64,000 nucleotides of DNA from Raillietiella orientalis (Eukaryota): positions 2,294,001-2,358,000 of the forward strand of contig JAYWIR010000005.1 of assembly GCA_036172245.1 (NCBI GenBank), given 5' to 3'. Under the pieces are notes generated by a model. That model was not told where the DNA came from and did no database searches. It worked only from the letters and a program-made list of their open reading frames with translations. The stretch's first letter is position 1. Each line of letters starts with the position of its first letter. Position numbers and translations under genes: made by a program. This document shows positions 25,398 to 62,400 of the stretch, piece by piece.

Positions 25398-25468
25398 GCG
25401 TAGAGGTATCTCCATAGTGCCGCACTTGGCAGGTAGCGGATTGCGTAGAGGTATCTCCATAGTGCCGC
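25398..25468. repeat. Perfect 26-bp direct repeat GCGTAGAGGTATCTCCATAGTGCCGC (25398-25423, 25443-25468)
   Basis: Directly visible. The second copy abuts the 5'-truncated start of element A1. Confidence 0.9.
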
Positions 25469-27508
25469 GTTGTGGGCAAAACCCAATGTCCTGGGTTACA
25501 CCAGGGCATTCAGTGGTTACGCCGCTGAGCGCGTGACGGTTCGTGCCGAGGGAGGGCTAGCCCACAGACTGCAGGTCGGGGAGGAGATCGACCTGTGGTA
25601 TGTGGGGAAACCCGTTTACTGCGGCTTTTGCCAGGTGTCGGGGCACCTGAAGAAAAAGTGCCCCAACATCGTGTGCTCGGGCTGCGGAGGAAAGGGGCAC
25701 ATCAGACGGATGTGCCCCAACAGCAAAAGGACGTCCCGGTAGGCAAAAGGAAAGAAGAGACGCCTAGGGAAGAAGACAAGGGCCAGGAAATGGCCGAATC
25801 CCGCCCGGCCAACCAACCCGATACTCAGCCATCCTCCAGCGCAGAACCTGCTGGAGAGAACGCCGAGAACGTGGAAGGTTGGCAAAAGGTAGGGAACAAA
25901 AAGCCCCAGAATAAGGAGGCAAAAAAGATAAACAAGGCGGCGCCGAAAAAGCAGAAACCGGTCGTCCGCGCTTGTACGGTGAAAATCGAACGCGTCTCGA
26001 TCGCCAGAGCTGTAAAGAAAGTAACGGTAAAGGCGATCGATACCGTCGATCCTGAGCCGGTCGTGCCCGCAGTGACGTCACCATCAGCTTACGACAATGC
26101 CGTTCCGGCATTGCCAGCGAAGGACGTCTGCGCGCCGATCGATGAAGCCGCTTCCATTGCGCCTGCACCGACTGTCAGTGCGGAAAGCGAGGAGGCGGCG
26201 CGTATAACGGACGCGACCTTCGCGCAGGCCGCGGAAGAGCTGGCAGCCATGTTACGGCAGCCTGCCAATGCCGAGAAAAAGGCCTTGAGACGACCGGCAA
26301 CGGTGAAGGGCCCGGAAAATTCCGAGTCCGAAACCGAAGCCGGTTGTTCTACTTCCGCAGCCGTGCCGAAGAGGAAGGCTGGCAAGAAAACCGGTTGCCC
26401 GAGATGTGTCGCCCCTCCGCAGGTGGAGGAGGCCATGTCGTCGGGCACGGAGGAGGAGGCAATGTGCGTCGCGCCACGCGACCCCTCTCCGATCCGTGTC
26501 TCGGAAGCCATCCCGATGGATGTCGCTGTGGAAGACGTGCTCCCGTGTGAGCAGCCGACCGTCGTCACGCCCGCCAACGAGCCGCCTCCCGCAAGGGAGG
26601 AGGCCGCCTCCACCCCACAATAAACACACCAATGCGTGGGCTCGCCTCCTGCCGCCGCTTGCGCATCATCTGTTGCAACGTCAACGGGTTGCGCGACGAC
26701 GGTAAGAGGCGAGACGTAGCCGCCATACTGCGAGACTTCGACCTGGTGCTCCTGCAAGAGACGCACGTTCTCAAAGCAGAAGTCCAGGAAATCGAAAGAA
26801 TCGCGGGAGGGCGGCTACTGTGGAGGAACGGAAACGACCGCTCCTGCGGAGTTACCTTTATGCTTAAGCCAGCCGTCGACAACGCATTGCGCAGCGTGAG
26901 GTTCGACGAGGAAGGTCGAGTTGGGCAGCTTGCGTTCAAGTGGTCCGACACGATCGACCTCATAGTCACGAACCTGTACCCTCCGGTGTGCAACCACAGG
27001 GCCGAGGAACGCACTGCGTTCTTCGAATCCCTGCGGCGAGACTCGTTGGCTGAAGAAAGCGTACGACGGGCGCACCCCATTGCGGGCGAATTCAATCTCC
27101 GCCTGCTGGCAGGTGCGCCGTGCATTCGAGCACGACTGGTCAACGAGTTGTGCGCAGCCATCAATGCGCGCAATTTCTTGGGCGGTGATGCCGGGAGAGA
27201 TCGGAACATCGACCACGTTCCTCGACAACCACCTGTGCACGCGGGTGGGAACTCGAGGAACGCTCCCGGCACAGCTGTCCGACCATCCACGGCTGGTGCT
27301 CGAGATACATCCACGTGGCAAGGGCCCTCCCCTGAAAACGTGGCGCCTGCCAGGGGACTGGTTGCGCCTCGCAGGAGCGGCGGAACATCTACGCGCCTTC
27401 CTGCGAGGAATCCATCTTGAGACGCTCGTGGACTGGGACGAAATGAAGTGCTCAGTCCGCGAGTTTTGCGACCAGTTTCCCCTGGAACGTCTTCCGCCGG
27501 GCTTCGGC
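25466..27508 (+). mobile_element. Tx1-like LINE A1: 5'-truncated ORF1 plus APE endonuclease, cut at GFG
   Basis: Two CCHC knuckles (CGFCQVSGHLKKKC, CSGCGGKGHIRRMC). ORF1 stop at 26623. ORF2 from 26632 with CNVNG, LQETH, NLYPP, SDH. Homology ends at LPPGFG. Confidence 0.92.
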
Positions 27509-30507
27509 GTTATCACCCGGGTAGGCCCGGGGCGTTTATTTGTAAACTCTACATGCGTGGTACGAGGCCCCACCACGGCCGTAAACACAGAACCTGTCGG
27601 GACACCGGGACGCAGCCCGGCGTGGCACTCCCCAAGAGCGAAGGAAGAAGGAAATAAGACAAAAATAAAAATAAAAAAAGAAACAAACAAAAAGAAGTTG
27701 GAAGGCAGGGAAGGGATCACTGGTCGCTGTGGGGAGGGCCCATCCGTCGAACGAAGCCCTCGAAGTCTGTCTGCATATTCCCTAGTTGGGGCCATCCGGC
27801 AGCTCTCCGCAAGAAACGTTGGGCATACGGGATGACATCCTTCGCCTGTGAACCCACTCCTTCGTTGTTGGCGTCGCTCCATGCCGCCACGATGCCACGG
27901 ACGCAGCACAAGGCTGCGATGGCTGCGGCTGGCTGCAGTGCGTCCTTCACGAAGAGGGGCCGAAGAACGTCTCTGGGGGTGCTGCCCGTAGGGAGACCGA
28001 GGGTCGTCCCGAACCGTTCCCAAAGGGGACGAAGGGCAGCACAGTCCACAATAAGGTGGGAGAGCGATTCCCTCTCTCCGCACCTGACACACGCAGGATC
28101 CACAACTCCTCTTGTCCACTGGGAGCGCCGTGCGTTGCAGGGTAAACCCCAATGCAACAACAGCAACGCCGACTCTTTCCACTTAAGGGGCAGGATCCTG
28201 GATTCCTGAAGAAGCGGGGGCCACTTCAGCACATCCATAGGGATGGCCAGCAGCTCGCCCCATCTTCTTAGTCCTCGCGGCTGGACGCTCGGTGTCGTGG
28301 CGTCGGCTAGTTCTCCTGTTGTCCAGCCGCTGATCAACTTTTCGCGTCCCTCGATGCAGCAGGAGACTTGCCACCTTGGCGTCCGACTGCTGTAAAGCGC
28401 CCTCCTCAGGAAGGGCAGCGCCGTAGCCAGGCAGGTTGTCTCTGCCCACGTGCTTCTAGCTGGATTCTCCAGGAGATTCCTGAGTGCAGCGGGCGTAGGG
28501 GCTGCATCGGGGACGATTCCACGTTAAATGGCTTTTCTGATTCACCACTGCCCACGTTCCGATGTTCTCCTCGAGCCAGGCGGAGGAGGTGGCGGGGCAG
28601 CAAACCATCCAGCTGTTCTCCATGGCCAACGATGCCATGCGCCCGAGCTGTAGGCCGCATCTTCTGATCTTCCGGCCGGGGCACAGAAGAAAAGACGCGA
28701 GTCCCTCGCACCGGGACACACGACTGGCGAGCAGGCGAGCCGGAATGCACCACGGGGTGCTCCACATCTTCGCTGCGATGGCGAGGGTACGCATTGGCAG
28801 CTGTTTCTCCAAAGGCTCCAGCGTCAGGAGGCTAAGTCCGCCGTCCCGACGAGGAGCGCAAAGGTCCTTCAAAGGGAATCGGGGCGTCCCCTTGCCCCAA
28901 AGGGCGATGCGGAGGAGGTCCTTCGTCCTCTTTTTCACAACTCCTGGGGCGAAGCAAACAAAAAGCAGGGGGCGGAGGAGAGGAGTCGCGAGCGTGTTCC
29001 AAACCGCGGTCCGTTCAGGCAGGAAAAACCTGCCGCCTCGGAACGGGCCGATCGCCGTCTCTACTTTTTGGAGGCAGCTGGACCACGCTTCCGCAGTGGA
29101 GTAGTCCCCCAACGTCACACCAAGGTACTTGAAGTACCTCACCGTGGGAATCCCCAAACGGACCCAGTCCTGCTGCCCTGCCCACGCCGCACCAACTGGC
29201 ATCACGGACGACTTCGCCCTGTTCACCGTAAGTCCGGTCCCGCGGTTGAGCAGGTCGAAGAAATCTCCTACCGCCTTCGCCGGGGTGGACATAGGTAAAT
29301 GGAGCAGAAGTTCGTCGGCATAAACACTTACGGCGGGCGTGTCGGGCCACGAGCTCGGCAAGGGGGCCAAAGTCACCCTGTACGCTCTCAGTACCAACTC
29401 AAAGTAGATGCTAAAGAGCAGGGGGCTGAGGCTATCTCCCTGCCGTATGCCCAGCCCCACCGGCACGCCGTACACCTGTTGGCTGGAAAAGCAGATGTTA
29501 AGGATGGCGTTGCGCCAGCAGGAGCGCAGGAAGGAGAGAAGGGCGGGTGGGAAGCCCATGCGACCCAAGAGCTACCAGAGGAGTTCCTGGTCTACACAGT
29601 CGAACGCCTTATGGAGATCGACTGCGAGCGCTAGAGCCCCCTTCCCAGCCCGGCTGGCGGCCCTAATGTGGGGTTGCCGACTTTCCTTATCCCTTTCTTT
29701 TCTCTTCTGTGCAGGTGCACCCATGTGCTTGCGAAGAAGAGGTTGGCATCCATACTTCGCTTGGGAACAGCATAAGTCTGGTCCGGGCTAATGACGGATT
29801 CTGCCACCTGCCCAGACGCGAAGCCCATGGCCCTGCTATTAATCCTGCATCCGTATTCACGACCGTGATCGGACGCCAGTTCTGTGAATTTCTGAGGTCT
29901 CCCCCTTTCGGAAGGAGCCTCACGCTGTCTGAGCGAAACAAGGCGGGAACATCGCCTTCGTCTCGGTTCAGCCTTATCAACTTAAGCAACAGGGTTGCAA
30001 GCTCTTCCGCGAAGCTCTGAAAGAACTCCGCGGGCAATCCGTCTTCCCCTGGAGCTTTACGCCTCTTGAACCTTTTGATACCGGCGAGAACGTCGCCGGT
30101 GGTAAAAGGGTCGTCGAGGCTCTCCATCTCCTCCTCCTCTATTGCCGAAGCGCCATCCGGAAGCAAGCGCCGAGAGGCGTGTCGATCCGGGTGCTCCCTG
30201 GCGGAAAGGGAGGAAGAAAAACTCCGCACAAGATGCCGTACCGACGCCGTGGACGAACATTCGCGGCTCTGGTCGTCCAGCAAGCTGGCCAACCCGGATT
30301 GCCAGGCTTGGCGTTCGGTCCCGGCGCGGTACTCGGCCAGACGAGGGACATTAGGTGTTCTCTCGTACCTACGGGCCTGTAAGTAGGCCCGATGGTTGCA
30401 AGTACCCTCGCCGAATCCGATGGGCAGGCGGTCCAGGGGGAACTGCTCGCAGAACTCCCGGACCGAGGCCTTGAGAAGCTCTAGATCCGAGAGACTCTGG
30501 AGCGTCG
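27509..30507 (-). mobile_element. Tx1-like LINE B1: 3' part (linker, RT, C-terminal Cys motif, 3' UTR)
   Basis: WRPITVVN, GIRQGDSLSPLLF, YADE, FKYLGV, CVRCGERESLSHLIVDC. Stop at 27717. AATAAA-hairpin terminus at 27509-27540. Confidence 0.93.
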
Positions 30508-33138
30508 ATCAGACGTGTCTTTGCGTTGCTCGTGAGTTTCATTTCCGTTGGTGCTTGTGCGTGTTGTGGGTGGAGGATTAGGCAGCAATGCCTGATACCA
30601 CCACCGGTGTGGATCCGGGGGCGATGACCTCATTGCCTCCGGAGGAGATGGAGGTGAGGGTTCCCGCATCAGTGGTGCCTCCCGCCAGCACGGATGCGCC
30701 CCCGGCCCTACGCAGGGCTTGGAAAGCCGTAGCTGCGGCACCTACGTTAGCGGCTATGGCGGAAATGCGCGCTTACCTGTAGGAGGGGTATAGCCCATCA
30801 CTTCTATATAAGGTAGGCGGTCTATATTCTCCCGAGAACACGCGCGCCTTCTCGCAGGCGATGCGCGTTCTCGGTGTACAAAAAGAGGAGCTTCTGGCTA
30901 TGTCCGTCAGAAGCGGGGGTCAATTTGTGGAAGTTATCTGCAGGGAGGCAACTCTTGCGCAGAGACTTCTGCGAACCCCCGTAATTATGGGCAGTCGGAG
31001 GCTTCTCCCAATTACTGAAGACCGGTCGGTGATCATTCACCTGACCGGTATCACGTTCCGGATGACGAAGGAGGCCGTCCGGAACGAATTAGAAAAATTC
31101 ACAACTGTCCACGCGCTGTGAGGTAAGCCTACTCCTATTGTTGATTACGACGGGGTGCTTGGCGGCCTGGATGCAGCGCGAATGACGGTTCGCGAAGGAT
31201 GTGAGTGTCCCCACAAACTCACCGTCAACGGTGAATCCGTTGACGTGTGGTACGCTGGGAAACCCAAGTTTTGCGGCTGCTGCAGCAGCTTTGGTCACCT
31301 TAAAATGAGGTGTCAAAGCGTGCAGTGCCAGCAATGCAAACAAGCGAGGCATACCCGTCTGGTATGCCCCCAAAACACAGTCCGCGTCGTGTCCGCAAAA
31401 AACGCGAGAAAGCGCGCGGCTAAAAAGAGAAAGAAGCTGGCAGCTCGTGCTGCTGCTAAGGAGGTCACCTCCTCCACCAAGGCGAAGGCCAGCCCCGAGA
31501 CCTTGGCGAAAAACGCCGAAAAGGTCGAGGGTGAGGGTCAAGAGCCAGGGTCAAGAGCCAGGGTCAAGAGCCAGGGTGGCAGAAGGTCGACCCCAAGAAA
31601 AACTCCCCTAAGAAGGGAAAGAACGTGGCGAAACGGAGCAAAAGCGCTTGGCGCCGCGAAAAAACCAAAAGCTGCTGCGTCGTCGTAGATCGGATTCCCG
31701 GCATCGACAAATGCGGCGCTAAAGAACTCGCTGCTGCCCCTGCTCAACCTTCCGTTGACAAAGTCAACAAGGAGGGCAGCGAGGCGGCGGCGTCTGTCAT
31801 CGAGCCCACGCTCGATGACGTCGCCTTCGAGCGCGCCGCGGAGGAACTGGCTGCCTCGTTGCAGCCGGCCGCCCCCAAGGCTGGCAAGAAGGCCGTCAGG
31901 CGTCCGGCTTCCCCTCAGGAGTCGGCCACTTCCGACCCCGAGGTGAAGGCCGGAAACACAGCATCCATCTCCTCGGCACCCCGCAAAAAGGCAGGACGAA
32001 AGTCCACAATGCCCCGGAAGATCGTCTCCCCCGACGAAGGGGAAGAGATGGCTTCCGGCTGCGAGGGTGCGATGAGCGTGGGAAACTCCCGGGACCCGTC
32101 GCCCGATCGAATCCCCCGCGCGGACACGGAGGAGATGGAGGGGGTGGAGGCCGAACAGGTGCCTTTGGTGCCTGAAGAGGCCTCCGTCCCCATGGACATC
32201 CCGAACACCTGCCCCGCGGTAGGTGGTGCAACGCCACCTTTCCAGCAATAAAGCCGGGAATCGCCTCCCGTCGTCGTCTGCTGATCGCCTGCTGGAACGT
32301 CAACGGGCTAAGCAACGACGGCAAGAGGCGTGACGTGGCCGCCACCCTGGCATCCTTCGACCTGGTGCTGCTGCAGGAGATCCACGTGATCTCCGCAGAT
32401 CAAGCCGTGGAGATCGAACGGATCTCGGGTGCTCGGCTGCTGTGGCGCTGCGGTACCGCGAAATCTAGCGGTGTTGCCTTCCTGCTCTGACCAGCCATCG
32501 AGTCCGCAATAAAGGACGTACGGTTTGATGACGCCGGTCGCGTCGTTCAGCTGACTCTCAGCTGGTACGACTCAATCGACCTGGTCGTCTCCAACCTGTA
32601 CGCTCCTATCGGTAAGGACGCGTTGAGGGCGAAGGCAAGAAGAGAATTCTACCTTGCCCTCGGATGCGATTGGCTGATCGAAGCAAGTGTTCGCAAAGCG
32701 CACCTGATCGCAGGTGACTTCAACCTGCGCCTGCTTTCAGGTGCGCCGGATACACTGAACGACCGCGTCAACGAATTTTGCGCGCAAATGCACACGTGCA
32801 ACTTGCTGGCCGGAGATACGGACATGGAAAGGAGCATCGATCACGTGTACCTTGACCAGAACCTATGCTCCCGCGTGGGCAGGCGCCGCAAGTTACCGTC
32901 CGAGCTGTCGGACCATGGCCGAATCGTGTTCGTAGTGCATCCGCGCGACAAGGGTCCCCCCTCGTCAGCGTGGCGTCTGCCAGGGGACTGGCTCAAGTTC
33001 CCGGACGCGGCGGAACATCTCCGCGCGTTCATACGGAACTTCAGGATGGGGACGCTTCAGGACTGGGACCGCTTCAAGCGGTCGGTCCAGGAGTTCTGCG
33101 ACCGGTTCCCTTTGCATCGCCTACCTGCGGGATTTGGG
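30508..33138 (+). mobile_element. Tx1-like LINE A2: 5' end, ORF1 (30588-32251, disrupted), APE, cut at GFG
   Basis: GACGTG 5' motif at 30512, CCHC knuckles, WNVNG/LQEIH/GDFN/IDHV/SDH. Ends LPAGFG. A 13-bp triplication at 31534-31577 shifts the ORF1 frame. Confidence 0.92.
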
Positions 33139-36100
33139 GTTGCCACCCGGGTACGCCCGGAACGTTTAATTTCAAAAACTCTACAAAACGTGGTACGAGG
33201 CCCCACTAACGGCCACACAACACACGACCTGCCTGGACGCCGGGACGCAGCCCGGCGTGACGCTCCTCGGCAGTGGAAGGGGATAGGGATGAAAACAAAA
33301 AGAAAAATAAAGATATGAAAAGAAAAACAAAAAGAGTTTGGAGGGAGAGGAAGGGATCACAATCCACTGGGAAGAGGGCCCATGCTTCGCAGGATGCCCT
33401 CCAGGTCCATCTTCATGCTTCCCAGATGGGGCCATCTCGCAGCTCTCCGCATGAAGCAGACCGCATACGGGATGACATCCCTCGCGTTGGCATCCACTCC
33501 TTCGTCGCGAATGTCGCTCCAGGCCGCCACGATGCACCGGATGCAGCAGAGGCCTGCGAGGCCGGCGGAGGGCTGCAGGTCGTCCCGCACGAAGAGGGGC
33601 CGAAGAACGTCTCTGGGCGCGCTGCCCATTGGGAGCTCGAGTGTCGTCCCGAACCGTTCCCACAGGGGTCGGAGGGCAGCACAGTCAACAAGTAAGTGGG
33701 GTAGCAATTCCCGCTCCCCACACCTGGCACACTCAGGCCTTACACTTTCCAGCGTACAGTGGAAGCGGCGCGCGTTGCAGGGTAGACCACAGTGCAAGAG
33801 CAGCAGCGCCGACTCTTGCAACTTCAGGGGGAGAAGCCTGGATCCGATTAATATTGGGGGCCACTTCAGGTCATCCGTCGGGATGCCGAGCAGCTCGCCC
33901 CAGCGAAGAAGTGAACGCGGGAGGCCACTCGGGGACGTGGCATCTGCCAGTTCTCCCATGGTCCAACCGCTCACCTTCTTTTCCTTGCCTGCGATTCGGC
34001 AGAAGACTTGCATCCTTGGCTTGCGGCCACTGGTTAAAACCCTTCGTAGGAAGGGCAGGGTCGTGGCTGGAGGGGTAGTCTCCGCCCACGTGCTCCAGGC
34101 AGGACACTCCAGAGTAGTCTGCAGTGTGAAGCAGGCGTTGGGGCGAATCGCAGGCGGTTCCATTCCGGAAAAGTCTGGAGGTTCAGCTTGGCACACGTCG
34201 CAACGGATTACTCCAGCCAGGCGGAGGAGTTGAAGGGGCTGCATACCGTTTAGCCGTTGTCTCTCAACAGGGCTTCCATGCGCCCAAGGAGAAGGCCGCA
34301 TCTTCTGACCTTCCTGCCAGAGCACAGAAGGTACGACGCGAGTCCTTGCGTCCTGGACGCACGGCTGGCGAGGATGCGGTCCGGAACGCCCTAAGGGGTG
34401 CTCCATGACTTTGCTGCGATGGCGAGGGTGCGCTATCGTAGCTGTATGTCCAGGCGCTCCAGCGTCAGGAGGCCGAGACCGCCGTCCAAACGAGGAGCGC
34501 ATAAGTCATCTAGAGGCACACGTGGCCTCCCGCTGCCCCAGAGAACGATGCGGAGTAGGTCCTTGGTCCTCTTTTTAATGTCACGGGGGACGGGGCAAAC
34601 AAAAAGCAGGGGGCGGAGGATGGGAGCCGCGAACGCGTTCCACACCGCGGCGCGTCCCGGCAGAAGGAACTTGCCTTCCAGGAACGGGCCGATTGCCAAC
34701 TCTACCTTTTGAGACAACCTGACCAGGCTTCTGAGAGTCAGAATTCCCCCAACGGGTCACCCAGGTACTTGAGGTACCTCACCGTGGATATCCCCAAACG
34801 GACCCAGTCCTGCTGCCCTGCCCACGCCGCACCAACTGGCATCACGGACGACTTCTCCCTGTTCACCGTAAGTCCGGTTCCCCGATGCAGCAGGTCCAAG
34901 AACTCCTCGACCACCGAAGCCGGGGTGAACATAGGAAGCATCAGCAGAAGGTCGTCCGCGTACGCTAAAACGGCCGGCGTACTTGCACAGTCGTGCGGCA
35001 GGTGCGCCAGAGTTCCCCTTTACGCTCTCAGTACAGACTCTAAGTAGGCACTGAAGAACAAGAGGCTCAGGCTGTCTCCCTGCCGGTTCCCACGCCGCAC
35101 CGGCACGCCTTGCACCGTCTGCTCGCTGAGAGAAACGTTGATGAGCGCGTCGCGCCAGCAGGAGCACAGATAGGCCACTGATGAGGCCGGAAAGCCCAAG
35201 CGTTCCAGAAGCTCCAGAAGGAGATTCTGGTCGACGCAAACGAATGCTTTCCGCAAGTCCATTGCGACCGCAAGGGCTCCCTTCCCCACCCGACCATCCA
35301 ATCCCTTGCCGGCGCACGCACCGGAATTCCGGCTGCGCATTAAGCTCCTTCCATGTTGGTGCTCTAGCCAGGTGAATGCGTGGAACAGGTTCGCCTCCAT
35401 GCTTCGCCCGGGAAGAGCATATGTCTTTTCCGGGCTAATGAAGATGTTGGCAACCCGTCCCAGACGCTCAGCCCAAACCTAAGCTATCAACTTGGCATCC
35501 GCATTCACTATTGTGATGGGACACCAGTTGTTCATGCTCCTCAGATCTCCTCCCTTAGGGAGGAGCCGCAGCTTTGTCAAACGAAACGAGGCGGGAACGT
35601 CACCTTTTTCGCATATCAGCAAGGTGAGTTGCTCTACCAGGGGGGTAAGCTTGGCCGCTAAAGTTTGGTGAAACTCCGCGGGCAGGCCGTCCTCCCCTGG
35701 AGCCGAGCGCCTCTTGAACTTTCCGATGGCCGAGAGAATCTCGTCCATCGTGAAAGGCTCGTCGAGGGTGTTTCTCTCCTCCTCTCCGATCTCTGGAGCG
35801 CCTTCGGGAAGCAGGAGTCGTAATACCTTCCTCTCCGGAGGTGCCCTGGCATACAGGGAGGAGTAGGAACTCCGCAGTAGGCCGCGATTTTTGGCGGTTG
35901 ACGAGTGCTCCTGGCCTTGATCGTCCAGGAAGCTGGCCGATGCGGACTCCCAGGCTTGCCTCTCGGCTCCCGCTTTGTATTCCGCCAGCCTGCGGCTGCC
36001 GGGGGTCCTGGCGTAACGACGGGCCTGAAGGTAAACTCGTTCGTTACGGACTACGGTTTTAGAACACGTAAGTAGGCGGTGAAGAGGGAACGGGTCGCAG

Positions 36101-36796
36101 AACTCCTGGACCTACCGATTGAAGCGGTCCCAATCCTAAATTGTCCGCAGCCTGAAGCTCCGTATGAACGTGCGGAGATCTTCCGCCGCGTCCGGGAGCT
36201 TCAGCCATTCCCCTGGGAGACGCCACGCTGACGACGGGGGGCCCTGTCGCGCGGATGGATCTCGAGGACTAGCGGGCGATGGTCGGACAGCTCTCACGGT
36301 AACTTGCCGCGCCTGCCCACGTGAGGGCACAGGTGCTTGTCAAGAAACACGTGGTCAATGCTGTCTTCCATCCCCGGTGCAGTGGTTAACAAATTACAGG
36401 TGTGCACCGCCATGCACACCTCGTTGACCAGGTCACGCTCGGGATTCTGCGCATCTGGTTTCAGGCGAACGTTGAAATCGCCTGCAACCAGATGGGCATT
36501 CCGCACGCCTGCTTCGGTCCGCCAGTCGCGCCGGAGGGCATGGAAAACCTCTTTCCTCGCCCTCCTGTTCATCAGGTCCGCGCCGCTAGGTGCGTACACG
36601 TTCGTGACGATCAGATCGATCAAGTCGGACCACCTGATAGTCAGCTGGGCGACACGACCGTGATCGTTGAACCGCACGCCCCGAGCCGCGCCCTCGACGG
36701 CTGGCCGAAGCAGGTAGGCGACACCGCAACTTTTCGGTCTCCCATACCTGTACCAAGCCGCCTTGCGGAGATCCGTTCGATCCCTTGCGCTCGTAC
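33139..36796 (-). mobile_element. Tx1-like LINE B2: most of ORF2 and the 3' UTR
   Basis: APE from xGIERI onward (NVYAPS, GDFN, IDHV), RT (DLRKAF, RQGDSLS, YADD), C-terminal CARC..H...C. Stop at 33357. Confidence 0.93.
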
Positions 36797-38153: not shown

Positions 38154-38295
38154 TTTTCCCCAAGTCCCACGAGGGGTGGAGTAAATTTATTTTTCTGAAA
38201 TTTTTCTATAAAAACATTCACACTACAATCTCATCCAGAGCATTACCACTTTTTTTTACCACTATGAAGTCCTTGGGTTCGCACAAGTTCTGCAC

Positions 38296-41802: not shown

Positions 41803-41815
41803 AAAAGGGGAAGAC

Positions 41816-43602: not shown

Positions 43603-43772
43603 CCTGGCAGCTGGTCTTGCTGCACAGGACCACTGCAGGTCTTTTGCCGCGATCTCCTCTCCGCTTCTTTTGTAGTTTCGTTCTGAAAACTTTCCCTCTC
43701 CGGGCACACACGAGCACAATTAACTGATTAGGTTGTCGAGCGCACAATACTTTGAGCCGCGAAGCAAGTTCA

Positions 43773-46365: not shown

Positions 46366-46374
46366 GCCTCCTCC

Positions 46375-51403: not shown

Positions 51404-53605
51404 TGAAGCTTTCGATTGCGTGAAACAAAACCTTCTTCATGAGCTGTTGGAACTTATGGGTCTCCTGGTATCCCTGTTGGCGTACTTGAGCTCCTGTTGG
51501 CGTCACGCGATAACAACCATTGTTTTCACTGGCTGCCTCGTGTACGGCGTTCCGGTACAGCGAGGAATAAGGCAGGAAGATGACCTAAGCCCGCTGCACT
51601 TCAGCATTTATTTTGAAATGGTGCTGGAGGATTACAGGCTGACGCTAGCCAACCTGCCGAGCTTCTCTCCAGGTATGCCGGCCGTGGCAGTCTATGCCGA
51701 CGACCTGCTTCTTCTGTTGCCCATGTCAACCCCGGCGGCGTCGCTTCAAGATTTCTTTGAGTTGATCCGTCTCGGTGCGGGCGTGAGAGTCAACAGGAGG
51801 AAGTGCATGGTTGTTCCAGTGGGAGCGACGTGGGAGGGGCAGTCGGACTAGATCCGCCTGGTGATCCTCACGGGCAGGTACCTGAGGTACCTTGGCGTGC
51901 CGCTGGGCGACTTCTGCATCTCAGAAGCGTGGTCGGACTGCCTTCGGAAAACAGAGCGTGCACTTTGCCCGTTCTGAGGAGGCGAGTTCGTCTTGCTGGG
52001 ACGGGACAGCATCTGGAACACCTTCGTTGGCCCCCTCCTCCTCCTCCTGTTTTTTCTTTGTCCACCCTCCCAGGAAGTCAAAGTCTCGGCGCAGCGCCTT
52101 CTATGCGAAGCGCAGTGGGGCGCTGCAAGATCCCGCGTAAGACTTAGGGACTTGGTGGCGCCGCGTCAGGATTCAGGCTTGGGTATCCTAGTCTTAAAAA
52201 GCATGGAGCAGCAGTTGCAGTTAGGAATACTGCGGCGCTGTGTCAATCTGTGGTGTACGACGTGGTGCTTACGCGCACGCCTTATAATAAGATGCTGCAC
52301 GGGAAGCAAGGGACTACTTTCGTAGCTGCCCCACTTTCCGCACACAAGAAAAGGGTTTGGCTTCCGGCTGAGGCAGCTGTCCTCACTGCTGAAAGCTCAA
52401 TGTTGGATCTCCTGCCGCCCCATGAACATTAATGCATGGCGGCAGGAATCTTTTTCATCGTGAGCAGCTTCCGAAGGAACGCGCCCGGAAGATCTTCGAC
52501 GCCTGCGACTTCTCCTCAGTCATCCAATGGACGAAGTCATGTAGGACAAGAAGTCGGATCGTCTGGCCGCCACACCACTTGCCGCAGCGCTGTCTGCCCT
52601 CAGGGCAAGCAACGACAGTTGCCTTCCTGCGAAATGGGAGTTCTCCTGCTCAATAGCGGGAGTCAGTAAGCTCCTCGGCGGCTGGACGACATAGAAGCTG
52701 CTGGAAACTGCCACTCCTCGTAATCGGACAAAGGGCCGTCTTCGGTGGAGTGAACATTTAAGTGTAACCCCCGCAGAGATAGTAACTCCCTCCGTTTGTT
52801 TGTACAGCTCCGTGTTTTTCTTAAGAAAGTGGAAATAAGATGTGCTGCTTTTTTTACACTGGGGCTTCCACTGTAATCGGCAGCGAAGCGTTGTTTCCGG
52901 GGGAGCTGCTCTGCCAAACTGTTTGAGGTGCGGAGTCATCGAGTCTTTTCCGCAGCTCTTGCTGGACTGCGGTGACCTCCGTGAACTGTGGCGAAGGCTG
53001 ATTCCAGCCATCCTGCCGCAGGGAGGCACTGCCATTGATATGCTTCGGCGCTTCTTCAGGAGGAATGGATTTTCGGTAGGCGCGATTGGCGCAGCCATGT
53101 TTTGCATTCGCGCCATCGTAAAGGCCCGCTACGCCCTGGAGTTGTCAGCGCAGCGAAGGGAGGCTCACCGGTTTGCAACAGAATCCACGGAAAAGGCTGC
53201 TTTGTGGCCTCATCTTCTCGAGGAGGTCAAGGAGGACATCGACGGCATCCATCGCCGGTTTACAGACTTTTAAGACCGGTGATCACTACGTCCTCTAGTC
53301 CACCCATACCCCTTTCCCGCTCGCTATGCTAAACTGTCGGTGTCATTACTTTTATCACAGTGCAAACCAGAGCAATCCCAAAGACATTTGTCCCGGCGTC
53401 CCTTATTGATTTCTTTTTCTTTTGTTTTTGTTTGTTTGTGTTCCCAGTTCCCCCACACCGTTCTGTTATTCTGGCCTGCGTGCCAGCAATTTTCTCTTGA
53501 TCCTCGTTCAGGTGTCGGTTGGGAGCATGGTTCCCAGCAGGGTTATTTTATTCAATTTTTTTTTCATATAATATGAAATAAACGCCCCGGCGTGGAAGGT
53601 GAGAA
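51404..53605 (+). mobile_element. Tx1-like RT, C-terminus and 3' UTR of a divergent copy (probably A3 part 3)
   Basis: AFDCV, GIRQED.LSP, YADD, YLGV, CLRCG. Stop at 53273. Ends AAATAAACGCCCCGG..GGTGAGAA next to a degenerate TSD matching the A3 5' flank. Confidence 0.85.
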
Positions 53606-54351
53606 ATCTCTTCCGCTTGTTCTGCAGGGATCAAGTGGATCTCCTGCAGTAGCGCAAGATCGAAGAATTCCAGAAGGGCGGCCATGTCTTCTCTCCTGCC
53701 GGCGTCTATCATGCCGTTCACGTTGCAAACGGCGATGCTCGAACGACGGCGGGAGGAGATTTCCGGCATTACTGCTGGAAAAACAAAGATGTGGGGGAGC
53801 CCACCTCTTGCGAGGCGTGCGGGATGTCCATCGGGGTTTTGGCCTTCTCAGGCACCTGAGGCACCTGTTCGGCCTCCACTCCCTCCATCCCCTACGAGTC
53901 TGAGCGTGAGGGTCTCTCAAGCAAATGGTCCCGCGAGTTTCCCACGCGCATGGCACCTTCGCTTCAGGAAGCCATCTCTTCCCCTTCGAAGGAGAGACGA
54001 CCTTTCTCGGCATTGTGGACTTACGTCCCGCCGTTTTGCGGGGTGTCGTGGAAACGGAGGCTGCGCTTCGGGCCTCCTCCTTAGGGTTCGAAGTGGAGGA
54101 CTCCTGAGGGGAGGCCGGACGCATTACGGCCTTCTCGTTTGCCTTAAAAGGTTCTGGCTGCAAAGAGGCAGCCAGCTCCTTCGCCACACGCGCGAAGGCT
54201 ACGTCATCGATGGTGGTGTCGATGACGGACGCCACCGCCGGCTCGCTTCACTCGCTGTTGACTGAGTGAACAGAGGTGAGGTCGACTGTAGCGGCGAGTT
54301 CTTTCTGGCAGCGTTCGGCAACATCGGGAACGCGTTCGACGACGACGCTGC
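53606..54351 (-). mobile_element. Tx1-like segment C: ORF1 C-terminus and APE start (probable upstream half of B2)
   Basis: DDVAFARVAKELAASLQ matches the A2-type ORF1. TAATG at 53771-53767. Ends at LQEIH..AEEI, where B2 begins. Confidence 0.88.
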
Positions 54352-56210
54352 ACAAACGTGTTCTGTGTTGCTCCTCGAGTGCGATTGCTTTCCGTCTTCT
54401 TGCGTGTGGTGTGCCCGAGTGCGTCCACTAGGATGTCCACGGAGCCCCTGCAGCAAAAGAAGGATGTGGAGGCTGCTATTGGAAGTGGAGACTCTACTCC
54501 AGATGTCCGGTCCGCCTCTGATTCTTGTGTCTCGCCACCGGGGAGAAGCTTCGCCTCCGTCGTCAAGGCGGCGGCAGCCAACGGAGCACCGCCCGACAAA
54601 GCGGAGCTACAGGCATATGCAGCCCATAGCTACAAGCCTGCGCTCTGCTATCCGGTGAGTGCTGCGATCTCCGACAGGGTCGGAGAAAATTTATGGGACG
54701 AGCTTTTGCTCGTCGGGGTCCGACAGGACGATCTCCTGGCAGTCATGCCGGTTAACGCGCTCGGACACTGGGAGGTGCACTGCAAAGAGTCATCCCTAGT
54801 CCAGCGCTTTTTCCGCACCCCGCTAAGCATACGCGGGAAGGAGGTCGTCCCGTCGGCCATGGACCAGTCGTTCGTGGTCGGATTGTCCGCCGTTCAGGTG
54901 GACACGCCCGATCGCGTGCACGTCGGTGCACTTAGTGCATTCGATGCTTTCCCAGACGGGAAAGATGCCACGTCGCCCTGGGGGCTAATCGCTTCCTTCG
55001 ACGCAGCCCAACAGTGCGGGCACGCACTCAATGAATGCTGCTGAACCGTCCAAGTGCGCGTCCAGCGGAACACACGGGAAACCGTGCGCGGGCACCCTTG
55101 GAGCTGCCTCTGAACGGCAGTCTGCTCCTACGGTGGCGAAGAGCACGTCTTCCACGTTGAAGGCACGAGCAGCGAAGGCTGAAATAGCATTTCGCGGGAC
55201 GACGGCAATGACCGCCGTTTCGGCCGCATCGGCGAAATAGAGGGTGCAGTGCGTAGCGGGGACGGAGCCGTCTTCCGTCCCGAGCGCGAAACCTGAGCCG
55301 CAATGTCCTGCCAAACAATTGAGGGAGGCGTCGGCCTACCAGAAGGGAACCCCCGACGCGGGCTCGACTCGCGTTTCCAGGACGCCCACAAAGGGGAAGA
55401 AGAAGGTTGACCCTTCAATATTACCCATCCTTAAGGTGGGTGGGAGGCAAAAGAGAAGCACGCCGAAGAAGGTGCGTACCCAGGTACGCACTACGGCTGC
55501 GTGCTCTGTCTCTGTCGCTTCGCGTCAGAAGGCGGCTGCGGAAGCCAAAGCTCCGGAAACTGCGTTGGCGACTGCGACGACCCCCGCGCGGGCAGGGCAA
55601 GCCTCCACCTGCCGAAACAAAAAGAGACATGCAAAAAGCCAGTCTCGAGCCAGGCATTCAGACTCCGAGTTGGAGTCCGAGTGCAAACAAATGGAGCGCG
55701 CATCCCGGGGTAAGCCAGTAGCGCGCCGGGCTAAAGTGCGGAAGCACGAGTCTGTTGCCGGAGGCGATCTCGACTCCTGCACGGAGACCAAGGCGATGAT
55801 CCTCGGCTTCCAGGACTCAGCTGGGCTTGATGTGGTGGCGAACGGGAGCGATTCCGCTTCCCAATACGCTCTCCTACCAGCTGACTTTTCGCTTGACGGG
55901 CGAGGAGCACGCCGTCAGGTCCGCAGCAGTGACGCGTGGACTCGCGTCCGCTCGTCGCGTCAGCGTGGCCTGTTGGAATTTCAACGTGCTACGTGATGCT
56001 GACAAAAGGCGGACGGTATCCAACGCTTTGCGCGCGTTCGATCTGGTGCTGCTGCAGGAGATTAATTGCATCTCCGAACGGCAGGCATCGGATCTGGAAG
56101 AGTGCGCGGGCGGAACGCTACACTGGCGGCAAGTCTCTGCGCACACGTGCGGAGTCGCGTTCCTCGTCCGAGGCAGGGTGGCGGAGGCGGTGCGGAACGT
56201 TTGTTTCGAC
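54352..56210 (+). mobile_element. Tx1-like LINE J: 5' end, internally deleted ORF1 (ATG 54433), APE start
   Basis: AACGTG..GTTGCTCC motif, LVQRFFRTPL, ACWNFN, LLQEI. Cut at VCFD. Confidence 0.87.
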
Positions 56211-56820
56211 GTTTTCACCCGGTGAAGCCAAGGAGTTTAATCGAAAACTAACAGAATTTGCGGTACAAGGCCCCGCTGCGGCCAATAGTTCTATGGAGAT
56301 GTCTGGTGGTCAGTGCACAGACCGACATAACACTCCACGTCAACGGATGGGGTTAGTTAGAAAAGAAAAATAAAAAAAAAAAAAAGTAGAAATACTGGTT
56401 ATTGGGAGGGCCGGGAAGGGATCACAGTCTGTTTTGTGGAGCTTCCATCCTTTGCAGGATGCCGACGAGGTCTTTCTGCAGATTTACCAGGTGGCGCCAT
56501 TGGCATGCTATTCCCAGAAAGCGAGCTGCATACTCCACGGCATTCCTTCTGTTAGCATCCTCTGCTTCGTCGGATCCACTCCAAGGTGCCACAATACCGC
56601 GTACGCAGCAGAGAGCTGCTATAACAGCGGCTGGCTGCAGGGCGTCCCGCACGAAGAGGAGCCGAAAAACGTCTCTGGGAAGACTACCTTCCAGGATCCC
56701 TAAGGTGAAACCGTAACGTTCCCACAGGGGCCGGAGGGCAGCACACTCAACCAGAAGCTGCGGGAGGGTTTCCCGCTGCCCGTACCGCGCACAGTTTGCG
56801 TTCACACTTCTCCGTGTCGT
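56211..56820 (-). mobile_element. Tx1-like LINE G: ORF2 C-terminus and 3' UTR
   Basis: LVECAALRPLWERYG..ALCCVRGIV. Stop at 56422. Terminus ATTAAA..CCGGGTGAAAAC. Confidence 0.88.
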
Positions 56821-59481
56821 TCTAGGGAGCGGACGTGGTTTGGCATCGCTCCACAGACTGGTTAGTGGGAAGCTTTTCGTTGGTTGTCTGGTGTGTGGGA
56901 GCACCAGTGTCCCATGGCAGAAATGCCTAAGGACACCGCGATGGAAGTTGGAGGAGGAGAAGCGACACGCTCTCCTCCACCAATAGAAGTGGGGGCATCC
57001 GCCCCCACGGAATCCGGGGCACTTGCCCCATCGGAATCGGGGGCAACCGCCCCTTCGCGACCTTCTTCGCCATTGGCGAGGAGTTGGAGTGACGTCTTTG
57101 CTGCACCATCCCCGGATGCAGTAGCGGAGCAGACTGCCTACAAGAACAGCGGCTACAAGCCGTCTCTGATCTATAAGGTAGGCAGTGTGTTTGATGAAAT
57201 AATTGCACGCCCCTTCGAAATGGAGCTGCAAAGGTTGAACGTGAGGGAGGAAGACCTTTTGGGCCTATCCATCCTTAGTGGGGCCAGCGAGTTGAGCTGA
57301 CATGCAAAGAGGCATGTCTGGCGCAGCGACTGCTGAACACCCCTATTACGGTGGACGGCCGCAGGATCTTCCCTGTGACGGAGGACCGCTCCGTCGTGGT
57401 CCACCTCACAGGTGTATCACTCCGAATGGACAAAACCAGCGTCCATGAGGAGTTGTCGAAGCATAGTAGTGTGCACGCGTATTGGGCCAAACCTAATGTC
57501 TTCCGAACGTACGGAAGGATATTCATTGGGATGGCCGCCTCCCGCGTCACCCTACCAGAGAATGGTGGGCTTCCCCACAAACTGAATATCGGCGAAGAAA
57601 AAGTCGATGTTTGGTACGTGGGTAAGCCCAAGTATTGTGGCCATTGCGATGCTACAGGGCATCTAAAAAAGCGGTGCCCTAACATCCAATGCCACTTATG
57701 TGGAAATAAGGGCCACATCCGTAAGGTGTGCCCAAGAAGAGAAATCCCGCCCCCATCCGCTGCAAAAAAGGCAAAGGGGAAACGCACGGGAGAGACGCAT
57801 AAACAGAAACAGGCTGTAAACACCCAGATGCCAGTCCCTAAGCCCTCACAGCAAACGTCGGTTGAGAACACTCCCGACGACGCTGGTGACGGCGAAGGCT
57901 GGCAGACGGTACAGCCACGAAGAAAACCCGGGAGTCCCGAACGAAACGCGGTGAAAACAAAAACGCAGCGCGAAAAACCGTGCCGCGAAAAGCTCCGCGC
58001 GTGTTCGGTAAAATTAGAACGTGTGGAGGCACCCGATGCCGCCGCCGGGGGAGCAATCCCCCCCCTCGCGTCCGCCGAAGCCGCGACGGTCGATGGTGAA
58101 CCCTCTGGCGAAACAGAGGGGGAACCGCGCGCCGCGCTCGACGCGATCGAGGAGGCCGCCTTCCAGCAGGCGGTGGAAGAACTCACGGCTGAACTGCATG
58201 GCCGTGAAAAGAACTCGCGAAAAGGCTTGCGAAGGCCGGCCGCGAGGAAGGCTCCGGAGGCAGGTGAGGCCGATCCGGACGTCGAAAGTGCGTCCTCTTC
58301 AGCGGAGGCGCCACCAAAGAAGACGGGACGTAAGTCTCAGAATCCCAGGAGGCGCATGCGGATCAATAAGGAGGCGGATGAATCGGCCCCCGAGGGGGAA
58401 GCCGGCAGCGTGGGAGGCGAGGTTGGGAATCTCTCATTTCCCGACACCGTGCAGCTGGCGACCCCCATGGAGGAGGAAGTACAGGTGGGTGAACCCCTAC
58501 TTCCACTGCAAGGCCCCGACGACGAATCGTCCTCCATGGAGGAGGGAGAAGCGGTGCGCGACGCACCCCCTCCTCCTAGCGTCCCGCCCGACAAGGTGGC
58601 GGGAGCCCCATTGCCAATTTCCCAGGATTAACACCTGGACTCGCCTGTCGCCGTAGGATACGCGTAGCCTGCTGGAACGTCAACGGGCTCCGCGATGACG
58701 GCAACAGGCGAGACATGGCCGACACCCTGCGTGACTTCGACCTGGCACTCCACGTGATCACCGCGGAGAACGCACAGGAGATCGAAAGGATCGCAGAGGG
58801 TCGTCTATTTTGGCAATGAGGCGCTCGCAACACCTGTGGCGTCGCGTATTTTATGAAGCCAGCAGTCGCTTCCTTCGTCAAGGACGTGCGATTCGACAAG
58901 GACAGTCGGGTTGGCCAGCTTATCCTTAGATGGTCCGACTCTATCGACCTTGTCGTGACTAATGTGTACGCTCCGAGCGGAGGACGCGGGTACGGGGAAC
59001 GTTCCCGGTTCCTCGAAACCCTCAAGCGCGACTGGCTGGCGGATACAAACGTACGCAAGGCACATCTGATCGGTGGGGATTTCAACATCCGCCTGCTCTC
59101 AGGTGTGCCTTGCAGGCAAAAAGACGCAACCAACGAGTTGTGCACCGCTATGCGTACGCGCAACTTGCTGGGAGACCTACCGGAAATAGCCCAAAGCGTA
59201 GACCACGTCTTCCTTGATGCCGACCTGTGCCCAGAGGTCGGCAGACCAGGGAAACTTCCGTCGACAGTATGGGACCACCTCCAGTTCATAATCGAAATTA
59301 TGCCACGCGACAAAGGACCACCATCAAGGGCGTGGCGTATGCCAGGGGACTGGACGCGCATCTCCGTCAGTTCCTAAGAGGCAACATCCTCTGCAACCTC
59401 GAAGATTGGGACCGCATGAAGGTCTCGGTCCGTGAGTTCTGCGAGGATTTCCCTTTGCACCTCCTGCCCCGGGGATTTGGA
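56821..59481 (+). mobile_element. Tx1-like LINE H: 5' end, ORF1 (56914-58631), APE, cut at GFG
   Basis: GACGTG at 56832. CGHCDATGHLKKRC and CHLCGNKGHIRKVC. APE motifs. Ends LPRGFG. Confidence 0.92.
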
Positions 59482-62400
59482 GTTGCAAACCGGGTACGCC
59501 CGGAGCGCTTATTAATAAAAAACTCTACAATCGCGGTACCAGGCCCCGCTCACGGCCTTATGCACAAGACCTACCGAGACGCCGGGACGCAGCCCGACGT
59601 GGCACTCCCCGGCAGCGAAAGGGGATGGGGAAAAACAGAAGGAAAAATAAAAACGCAAACAAACAAAAGCGGTTGGAGGGCAGCGAAGGGATCACTGTTC
59701 GCTGAGAGGAAAACCCAACCGTTGAAGGAAGCCCTCAAGGTCCATGCGTATGTTCCCCAGTTGGGGCCATCCAGCAGCTCTCCGCAAGAAGCGTCGGGCA
59801 TGGGAGGTGGGCCCATCCTTCGCAGGATTCCCTTCAGGTCCATCTTCATGCTTCCCAGATGGGGCCATCTCGCAGCTCTCCGCATGAAGCAGACCGCATA
59901 CGGGATGACATTCCTCGCCTGTGGACCCACTTTTTCGTTGTTGGCGTCGCTCCATGCCGCCACGATGCGACGGACGCAGCACAAGGCTGCGAGGGCTGCG
60001 GCGGGCTGCAAGGCGTCCCGCACGAAGAGGGGCCGAAGAACGTCTCTGGGCGCGCTGCCCATTGGGAGCCCGAGGGTCGTCCCGAACCGTTCCCACAGGG
60101 GTCGGAGGGCAGCACAGTCAACAAGTAAGTGGGGAAGCAATTCCCGCTCCCCACACCTGGCACACTCAGGCCTTACACTTCCCAGCGTACAGTGGAAGCG
60201 GCGCGCGTTGCAGGGTAGACCCCAGTGCAACAGTAGCAGCGCCGAATCTTGCCACTTAAGGGGGAGAAGCCTGGATCCGATTAATATTGGGGGCCACTTC
60301 AGGTCATCCGTCGGGATGCCGAGCAGCTCGCCCCATCTACGAAGTCCACGAGGGAGGGCACTCGGGGTTGTGGCATCTGCCAGTTCTCCCATGGTGCAAC
60401 CGCTTATCTTCTTTTCCTTGCCTGCGATTCTGCAGGAGACTTGCCACTTTGGCTTGCGGCCGCTGGTTAAAGCCCTTCGTAGGAAGGGCAGGGTCGAAGC
60501 TAGGGGGGTAGTCTCCGCCCACGTGCTCCTGGCGGGACACTCCAGAGTAGTCCGCAGTGTGCAGCAGGCGTTGGGGCCGAATCGCAGGCGGTACCAGTCC
60601 GGGGAAGTATGAAGGTTCAGCTTCGCCCACGTCGCAACGGATTCCTCAGGCCAGGCGGAGGAGTTGGCGGGGCTGCATACCGTCCAGCCGTTGTCTCTCA
60701 CCAGGGCTTCCATGCGCCCAAGGAGAAGGCCGCATCTTCTGACCTTCCTGCCAGAGCACAGAAGGTACGACGCGAGTCCTTGCGTCCTGGACACACGGCT
60801 GGCGAGGATGCGGGCCGGAACGCACCAAGGGGTGCTCCATGACTTTGCTGCGATGGCGAGGGTGCACCATCGTAGCTGTATGTCCAGGCGATCCAGAGTC
60901 AGGAGGCCGAAACCGCCGTCCCGACGAGGAGGGAGTAAGTCATCTAGAGGCACACGTGGCCTCCCGCTGCCCCAGAGGGCGATGCGGAGAAGGTCCTTGG
61001 TCCTCTTTTTAATGTCACGGGGGACGGGGCAAACAAAAAGCAGGGGGCTGAGGATGGGAGCCGCGAACGCGTTCCACACCGCGGCCCGTTCCGGCAGAAG
61101 GAACTTGCCTTCCAGGAACGGGCCGATTGCCAACTCTACCTTCTGGAGACGACCTGACCAGGTTTCTGCGAGGCAGAAGTCCCCCAACAAGACACCCAGG
61201 TACTTCAGGTACCTCGCCGTGGGGATCCCCAAGCGGATCCAGTCAGGCCGTCCGACCCACGTCGCACCCACCGGTACGACCGACGACTTCGCCTTGTTTA
61301 CCCGAAGTCCAGTCCCACGACTTAGAAGGTCGAAGAAATCGGCGACTGCGGCTGCCGGTGCGGACATGGGTAACATGAGCAAAAGGTCGTCGGCGTATGC
61401 TGCTACGGCGGGCGTGCCGGGGCACGAGCTGGGCAGGGCAGCCATAGTCACCCTGTACGCTCTCATCACCAAATCAAAGTAGGTGCTAAAGAGCAGGGGA
61501 CTAAGGCTATCGCCCTGCCGTATGCCCCGCCGCACCGGCACGCCGTACACCCGTTGGCTGGGAAAGCAGATGTTAAGAATGGCATTGCGCCAGCAGGTGC
61601 GCAGGAAGGAGAGAAGGGAGGGTGGGAAGCCCATGCGACCCAGGAGCTCCAACAGTAGCTCCTGGTCAACGCAGTCGAACGCCTTATGGAGATCGACCGC
61701 GATCGCGAGGGCCCCTTTTTAGCCCGGGTGTCCATTCCCAGCCCAGCTGGCGTCCCCAAAATGGGGTTGCCAATCTTTCCTCCAGTTTCATTTAGGCAGC
61801 GCTGCACATGGAACCATGTGCTAGCGAAGAACAGGTTGGCATCCATAGTTCGCACGGGAACAGCGTATGTCTGCTCCGGGCTAATTATGGATTCTGCCAC
61901 CTGTCCTAGACGCGAAGCCCACAGTCCAGTGACCAGCTTGGCGTCCGTATTCACAATTGTGATCGGACGCCAGTTGTCTAAAGATCTCAGGTCTCCTCCC
62001 TTCGGGAGAAGCCTCACACGGGCTGATCGAAACGAGGCGGGAACGTCGCCTTCGTCTCGGATCAGCCCGGTCAACTGGAGCACAAGAGAGGCCAGCTCTG
62101 TCGCGAAGCATTGAAAAAATTCCGCAGGCAGGCCGTCCTGCCCTGGCGCCTGACGTCTCTTGAGCCTTTTAATACCGGCGAGAATTTCACCGGTAGAAAA
62201 AGGCTCGTCGAGGCTGATGCTCTCCTCCTCCCCTATTGCCTGGCCTCCGTCCGGAAGCAGGAGCCTCGAGGCGTCCCGCTCTGGGAATGCCCAAGCGTAG
62301 AGGGAGGAATAATAGTGTTGCACGAGGTGCCTGATCGCGGGTGGGGAAGATCGCTCTCGGCCCTGGTCGTCCATCAAGCTGGCCTACCCGGATTGCCATT

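Follow-up and report, generated by a model that had tools for sequence, protein, structure and literature searches.

A candidate antisense insertion hot spot within the ORF2 of a self-nesting LINE family, suggested by three junctions after the same Gly-Phe-Gly codons

How does a retrotransposon come to be interrupted, more than once, at the same codons of its own gene by members of its own family? The question is raised by a stretch of DNA from Raillietiella orientalis, 64,000 nucleotides (nt) in length (GenBank assembly GCA_036172245.1, contig JAYWIR010000005.1, positions 2,294,001 to 2,358,000, forward strand; hereafter, the window), of which the part from 25.4 to 64 kb is a pile of GC-rich (55-63%) copies of long interspersed nuclear elements (LINEs), possessing an endonuclease (APE) domain and a reverse transcriptase (RT) domain and lacking poly(A). 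Some 16 fragments of one diverse LINE family, along with one full-length element of a second family, designated G, are found within these 39 kb (Table 1). The fragments were mapped by blastn, tblastn and nhmmer, and the reverse complement of 59482-64000 (copy C', 4519 nt) served as the ruler for the reference positions given below. A copy that has been cut is called here a host, and the copy that adjoins it an insert.

At three places in this pile a plus-strand host breaks off within the second open reading frame (ORF2) and is followed by a minus-strand insert. A preliminary description of the locus had placed these junctions, at 27508, 33138 and 59481, at one and the same ORF2 position, and the sequences indeed read as claimed, in frame LPPGFG, LPAGFG and LPRGFG. 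Host A meets insert A' at 27508/27509 (GGCTTCGGC/GTTATCACC, the slash marking the cut here and below; codons GGC TTC GGC, then GTTATCACC; the boundary of this host is possibly ambiguous by 1 nt), host B meets B' at 33138/33139 (GGATTTGGG/GTTGCCACC; codons GGA TTT GGG, then GTTGCCACC), and host C meets C' at 59481/59482 (GGATTTGGA/GTTGCAAACC; codons GGA TTT GGA, then GTTGCAAACC). The Gly-Phe-Gly (GFG) site corresponds to reference 1496/1497, within the APE-RT linker, approximately 70 codons past the SDH motif of its endonuclease domain. As had also been described, uncut copies continue as GFGKG (C', at about 62504) and GFGEG (A', at about 30410), and in B' the site is decayed. To the right of each junction stands the reverse complement of the conserved 3' untranslated region (UTR) and the ORF2 C-terminus, each plus-strand host thus adjoining a complete minus-strand 3' terminus (...AAC). 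Given uniform placement, the chance that three of the five 3' junctions of the family would fall at one nucleotide of an element of about 6 kb, in one orientation, is about 3e-7. Near the same site lies the 5' end of element I, as previously noted: copy F begins roughly 7 nt (+/-2) beyond this site, and at 48785/48786 it meets I, whose 5' terminus is full-length, as a further insertion there would look from its other side.

Other origins of the junction sequences were considered. An intron beginning with GT after the GFG codons is ruled out, as what follows these codons is 3' UTR and ORF2 of the family in reverse complement. Twin priming, by which host and neighboring copy would derive from one RNA, is ruled out as well, the A'/B, B/B' and C/C' overlaps being just 65-85% alike. 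Despite this level of likeness, long open frames persist in several of the copies.

As to whether the three junctions represent three events or one, multiple lines of evidence support at least three insertions that, judged by comparison of the copies, were independent of each other, at the same nucleotide and in the same orientation. In a maximum-likelihood (ML) tree built from a 900-nt APE region of seven copies, the partners of host C are uncut C' and I (100/100) and that of host B is uncut B' (85/86), while forcing the three hosts to be monophyletic costs 109 units of log-likelihood (approximately unbiased (AU) test, p-AU 1.3e-7; the pairwise distances had already been known before this test). 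The differences between the hosts amount to 0.44-0.63 at codon position 3 versus 0.18-0.31 at positions 1 and 2, an excess that is kept even across the last 41-97 codons ahead of the cut, with codon-position heterogeneity significant in two host-host comparisons and in one of a host versus uncut C' (chi-square p of 6e-6 to 9e-11). The hosts, therefore, had diverged as active lineages by the time they were cut. Dead duplicates, or a transduced non-coding antisense tail, would differ equally at the three positions, and a single-copy origin is thus contradicted. The A' and C' inserts likewise differ by 0.32 at third positions versus 0.16-0.20 at the others. Across the junction, identity is 0.63-0.66 for the hosts and 0.71-0.80 for the inserts, and the junction-proximal sequence is diverged by 23-40% in every pair, on both sides. 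It is hence highly improbable that one ancestral junction was copied, through segmental duplication, through gene conversion or homing-like repair, or through 3' transduction of a composite unit, even if the architecture is alike at the three loci, and the downstream host half is kept at none. Exchange between copies, by recombination or conversion, does take place in this family: B' (33400-34900) and C' (59800-61200) match at 92-97% of positions across reference 2800-4000, their differences being spread equally over the three codon positions, while elsewhere in ORF2 they are 57-74% identical, with a third-position excess, which points to recombinant lineages or to gene conversion between copies 26 kb apart. 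However, over the final 300-400 nt ahead of the junction the tract is no longer present, and identity there is down to 0.71-0.77; in addition, the hosts have diverged more than the inserts, and the 5' truncation points differ among all the inserts. The independence of the three events, as asserted in the preliminary description, is thus upheld, by the rejection of host monophyly and by the third-position excess in the host-host and most of the insert-insert pairs, and the contrary case it had set in advance, of one old junction duplicated with neutral divergence, is rejected.

What, then, would bring new copies to this nucleotide? On balance, we lean toward repeated antisense insertion via target-primed reverse transcription (TPRT) at a hot spot within the ORF2 of the family itself, through a preference, at the protein level, for nicking a site of the TTYGRN/RA type. 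At least three times, in separate events, a new copy would integrate by TPRT into an older member of its family. A nick in the host's sense strand, directly past the Gly-Phe-Gly codons (GGN TTY GGN/RAG), would leave a 3' OH (primer ...GGNTTYGGN-3') to prime cDNA synthesis from the 3' terminus of the incoming RNA, the first base copied being the last base of this RNA. As priming would be by the sense strand of the host, the insert would end up antisense to the host. By inspection, no microhomology is seen between the RNA end ...AAC and the primer end ...TTTGGA, and the hot spot may reflect a preference by the element's own endonuclease or ORF2 protein. Such a preference is suggested by a look-alike site: of the two remaining 3' junctions of the family, one is at TTCGAC/GA in the APE domain of copy H, a sequence close to the uncut GFG site, which reads TTCGGC/GA in A' and TTTGGA/AA in C'. 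This junction, noted before as TTTCGAC/GTT at 56210, is indeed present, as the junction of H and H'. Along the 4519-nt reference, TTYGRNRA occurs four times in the sense orientation (889, 1492, 2241, and 2528) and not once in the antisense, and the matches at 889 and 1492 are the used sites. A conserved block is present just upstream of the GFG site (mean pairwise identity of 0.80, reference 1452-1481), but it is not unique.

A number of observations weigh against this reading. Only three of the five 3' junctions are at the site, which would make it a matter of preference and not of absolute specificity; the fifth junction, of K and J at 53608/53609 (AAGCGGAAGA/), is at an unrelated site outside the motif; and the motif is post hoc, drawn from the very junctions that it explains. 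With 49 and 50 matches on the two strands of the window, the 8-mer alone would predict insertions outside the LINEs too. The earlier proposal that APE recognizes a TTYGRN-like site is, therefore, only partly borne out, by the look-alike site in H and by the use of two of the four sense motifs, while the post hoc nature of the motif and the misfit of K/J count against it. Other breakpoints are found near the site, at reference 1350, 1401, 1416, and 1504 (45189, 30511, 51401, and 48785, respectively), and such clustering within 150 nt is a hint that the zone is fragile or recombinogenic more generally. The neutral-looking B'/C' tract means that gene conversion or recombination acts in the family. 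In-frame stops number 7 in 695 codons in B' versus 2 in 710 in A', though the order of nesting would make B' the younger. Finally, hosts A, B, and C have no downstream half (KG through RT to the 3' end, plus strand) anywhere within the window, and thus no GFG insertion possesses both flanks or a target-site duplication. Neither this absence nor the K/J junction figures in the preliminary description. The remainder of host C may lie beyond 64000, but the remainders of A and B require the assumption of a large deletion at 45189/45190, a joint of two internal positions. Deep nesting, one later deletion, and the end of the window would together explain the missing halves.

The manner in which the cluster was built bears directly on this point. 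Wherever a plus-strand 5' terminus is full-length, its neighbor is a minus-strand copy that is truncated, and the neighbor of each minus-strand 3' terminus is a plus-strand copy that has been cut. One proposed nest has A holding A', which would hold B, then B', then D, then G; another has F/J holding H, then H', then C, then C', and would extend off the window. Of the 11 nestings so deduced, 10 are antisense (binomial p=0.012, with I and K counted as one element). Strand asymmetry of TTYGRN was considered as the source of this bias and found to be inconsistent across copies. One example of nesting is presented by G, an element of 5.6 kb with an intact 559-aa ORF1, a frameshifted ORF2, and a 3' end in ...GGGGAAAAC. 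Both its flanks are present, host D resuming beyond it (43773-45189), and an 11-bp target-site duplication (CCGACTCGGCA) is found at 38142-38152 and at 43773-43783. G is an ordinary antisense nested target-primed insertion, and bona fide antisense nested TPRT does occur in the cluster. The sequence CTCGGCA/GTT at 38152, previously listed with the similar 3' junctions, is present, but it turns out to be the 3' junction of G, an element of the second family, with its 11-bp duplication.

Could the linker between APE and RT be, instead, a general hot spot for breakage, pausing, or template switching, with no insertion targeted by an endonuclease? For example, the polymerase, on stalling there in sense-strand synthesis of a full-length copy, might switch to the 3' end of a different RNA, or inverted copies might recombine. 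The alternating chain of plus and minus copies and the absent host remainders would agree with this, as would the four other breakpoints within 150 nt of the site and the full-length 5' termini that stand against truncated copies of the opposite strand in four cases (A' and B, B' and D, F and I, H' and C); J and H would make a fifth, which is only deduced, the 5' terminus of H not having been detected. We nevertheless consider this explanation quite unlikely. The same chain contains, in G, an ordinary nested insertion with a target-site duplication; the three junctions are nucleotide-exact and always involve a complete 3' terminus, as predicted for TPRT; folds of the single-stranded DNA are not stabler than those of shuffles (z of +1.59, -0.88, and -0.50 for the GFG sites and -1.46 for the Phe-Asp site); and one deletion, along with the window edge, suffices for the missing halves. 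A DNA hairpin at the site, as a candidate on its own, is likewise unsupported, no stable fold being found around the site in comparison with shuffles. Homology of nucleic acids presents a different alternative to the nick preference, one that we regard as somewhat less unlikely than the break hot spot but still doubtful, namely that site and orientation are set by such homology and not by protein-DNA recognition alone. One route is through read-through RNA, as had been suggested in the preliminary description: transcripts of the copies at the GFG site would run into the antisense host flank, and this flank, as part of the template RNA, would anneal to the nicked sense strand of another copy, either alone or atop a weak endonuclease preference, so that site and orientation would be self-propagating. 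Alternatively, incoming RNA or nascent host RNA might form an R-loop on a homologous copy, the displaced sense strand then being nicked and used as the primer. If true, the R-loop route would account together for self-targeting, for the antisense bias, and for a heritable hot spot, and either route would mean RNA-guided, self-propagating target choice in an APE-type LINE.

A precedent for the read-through route is provided by R2Ol, whose retrotransposition was raised from 12% to 96-98% by extra downstream target on the template RNA (PMC6530143). Furthermore, the inserts at the GFG sites form one 3'-end sublineage, with 71-80% mutual identity versus 63-64% to H' and 46-54% to K, a grouping that inheritance of the site along a lineage would predict; hosts B and C share an APE subfamily with their own inserts near the site (71/84 and 69/84 identical, respectively); and the predominance of antisense nesting is not fully explained by the strand asymmetry of the motif. 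However, neither of the two non-GFG insertions carries the antisense GFG flank after its terminus, H' and K both ending cleanly, and the last 76-96 nt of each host track its own lineage and not the other junction hosts. Host A is no nearer to A' (54/83) than to C' (56/84), and G is antisense too, yet it has no nucleotide homology to host D. The hexamer that precedes all the 3' ends, described below, would suggest a defined cleavage site, if the signal, putative in this organism, is in use. Targeting by read-through RNA thus finds no positive support here, given the absence of transduction footprints and host ends that follow their own lineages, and we hold this route, too, to be unlikely.

The 3' ends themselves are conserved, with a possibly structured 3' UTR that closes in ...CCGGGTRNNAAC. 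A search by nhmmer with a 3'-UTR profile recovered exactly four ends of the ...AAC type, three at GFG and one elsewhere (H/H'), and ...AAC is taken as the true end of the element because the same 3' terminus adjoins a different host position at 56210/56211. Poly(A) is missing, as reported earlier, with all ends, in ...AAC or ...ATC, standing directly against host sequence. Such absence is ordinary for the L1-clade LINEs of green algae, judged by one published table, in which 13 of the 15 families lack (A)n, 8 of them closing in other repeats and 5 possessing no 3' repeat (PMC3747384, table 3). A hexamer A(A/T)TAA(A/G) is present 25-33 nt before the terminus in six of six LINE 3' ends (27509, 33139, 59482, 56211, and 38153, minus strand; 53608, plus strand), which hints that it may mark a defined RNA 3' end or cleavage site, use of this signal in the host organism being putative. 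From an alignment of the 3' UTRs (27509-27640, 33139-33275, 59482-59615, and 56211-56345), a long-range stem is predicted that would join the start of the UTR with a CCGGG..CCCGG terminal region, with compensatory changes in 10 of 30 pairs across five sequences.

As to the nature of the elements, which are probably L1-like, they possess the features of LINEs, namely variable 5' truncation (at reference ~750, 1401, 2451, and 3800), a defined 3' end, and, for G only, a target-site duplication, and the full-length 5' termini carry a common motif, (G)GACGTG.... The APE domain is recognized in the N-terminus of ORF2 (PF03372, E=1.7e-6, 28.4 bits with a cut-off of 24.5, at 50550-51851), while on G its score is under the cut-off (E=1.9e-4, 21.7 bits). 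RT follows 3' of APE (PF00078, E=1.2e-14 in C' and 1.4e-29 in G). Matches to zf-CCHC in ORF1 are weak, both under the Pfam gathering score (E=8e-4 in G and 8e-3 in C), and CxxC...H patterns are seen by eye in the ORF1 translations. Copy C' retains a 715-aa open frame for RT and the C-terminus. The closest named proteins are plant ORF2s of the L1 type with RVT_1 and zf-RVT (24-32% identity, protein database), and the neighbors in a protein atlas have the identical RVT_1 and zf-RVT architecture. The protein database contains a single near relative, P0012 (65% identity), the others being distant plant-type L1s, and a metagenome scan with the ORF2 C-terminal protein recovered seven loci, all distant (28-37% identity). 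A search of a public DNA run with C' at 80% likeness recovered 260 mostly short contigs, 80-99% alike, 187 of these below 90%, and a diverse population of the main LINE family thus exists in the sample of this run. Among the joints listed, from the short contigs of this one DNA run, none changes strand from the GFG position to a 3' end.

Table 1. Positions of the LINE copies in the window and the state of their ends
Copy	Positions	Strand	Description	Remarks
L	24709..24954	-	Small RT N-terminal fragment left of host A	tblastn, 40-47% identity to C'/A' RT N-terminus; blastn
Host A	25449..27508	+	5'-truncated ORF1 and APE; stops after LPPGFG	
Insert A'	27509..30511	-	Complete 3' end (...GGGTGATAAC) at 27509; RT; uncut GFGEG at ~30410	
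Insert A', 5' truncation	30511	-	~95 nt upstream of GFG site	
Host B	30512..33138	+	Full-length 5' terminus (GACGTG...), ORF1, APE; stops after LPAGFG	
Insert B'	33139..36801	-	Complete 3' end at 33139; RT; decayed uncut site at ~36073; 5'-truncated within APE	
D, left part	36802..38152	+	Divergent subfamily; 5' terminus complete; ORF1; split by G	
G	38153..43772	-	Full-length second-family LINE (~25% aa identity to main family)	
E (D continued)	43773..45189	+	ORF1 end and APE; broken ~150 nt ahead of GFG position	
E2	45190..46380	-	Full 5' terminus and ORF1; broken within ORF1	
F	46384..48785	-	RT-bearing; 5' side begins ~7 nt past GFG site; 3' side cut at reference 3906	
I	48786..51401	+	Full 5' terminus, ORF1, APE; stops at reference 1416 (80 nt ahead of site)	
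K	51402..53608	+	RT to 3' end (...GAGAAATC); far more divergent lineage; in frame with I	
J	53609..54364	-	ORF1 C-terminus and first ~85 aa of APE; host of K 3' end (site AAGCGGAAGA/)	
H	54365..56210	+	ORF1 and start of APE; stops after ...TTTCGAC (Phe-Asp in APE)	Left boundary approximate
Insert H'	56211..56830	-	5'-truncated; complete 3' end (...GGGTGAAAAC) at 56211	
Host C	56831..59481	+	Full 5' terminus, ORF1 (450-aa open frame), APE; stops after LPRGFG	
Insert C'	59482..64000	-	Complete 3' end (...GGTTTGCAAC) at 59482; APE; exits window	

At 51401/51402, 80 nt before the GFG site, I, which is 88% identical to C' in APE, is fused in frame to the RT of K, of 43% amino acid identity to C', and a frame of 433 aa is open across the joint. 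The left part of the window (1-25400) alternates between blocks of 38-40% and of 54-62% GC and is without LINE homology, save for the fragment at 24709-24954; no Pfam matches were found in the 11 long open reading frames of this left 25 kb, and Rfam gave no matches. A 16-nt tandem repeat, in 6.9 copies, is present at 19456-19566.

Overall, the LINE insertions at this locus systematically disable older relatives, and repeated landing in their own gene goes some way to explain the growth of such nested clusters, the case consisting of three junctions in one window. In several green algae, putative centromeres and the ends of chromosomes are marked by Zepp-type LINE clusters. How elements of this type find their own copies is left unexplained in the literature surveyed, so far as the parts available to us go, and a defined hot spot in the element's own ORF2, at nucleotide level, would make this question of self-finding testable, as reading by the endonuclease versus homology of RNA.

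Among the known systems, Zepp and Cnl1 are LINEs that target pre-existing copies of their own (PMC8226300, PMC3446292, PMC9942834). Zepp and ZeppL of Chlorella, Coccomyxa, and Chlamydomonas form GC-rich clusters of nested, often 5'-truncated, self-targeting LINEs (PMC8226300, PMC3446292), and the pile described here, with about 16 family fragments and G in 39 kb and 10-11 nesting events deduced, is alike in this respect, as it is in an ORF2 of APE and RT whose nearest named relatives are plant-type L1s, the comparison with Zepp being by description only. However, Zepp, as well as L1-1_CR, ends in poly(A) (PMC3747384, table 3), while the copies here do not, and Zepp is described as tandem arrays of 3' ends in the same orientation, while here the orientation alternates, with 10 of 11 nestings antisense. 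The single-nucleotide hot spot inside ORF2 is a feature of the present family, setting it apart from Zepp as described. Cnl1 of Cryptococcus is also a non-LTR element that preferentially inserts within itself to form nested arrays (PMC9942834), but it is said there to nest in tandem near telomere repeats, while here nesting is antisense, and no telomere repeats are present in the window.

With R1, R2, the Tx1 group, and SART/TRAS, the present family shares a precise, repeated 3' junction at one target and in one orientation. The targets of those elements, however, are multicopy genes or repeats of the host, used with near-absolute specificity, while in the present case the element's coding sequence is itself the target, in three of five junctions. 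An R1Bm counterpart of the downstream-target effect seen with R2Ol was reportedly obtained by Anzai in 2005. In R1Bm, which is of the APE type, specificity is carried by the endonuclease domain (PMC1919474), and in the read-through annealing described for R2Ol/R1Bm the template RNA carries downstream target sequence, which pairs with the nicked target (PMC6530143). Read-through in R1 and R2 assists at a site already chosen by a specific endonuclease, while no transduction footprint is found here. Our literature search, over sources that were in part accessible, found no description of a precise antisense site in an element's own ORF2, though the original Zepp descriptions may hold a site preference. 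While self-nesting LINEs themselves are known, antisense insertion at one precise site of the family's ORF2 looks like a novel form of self-targeting LINE behavior.

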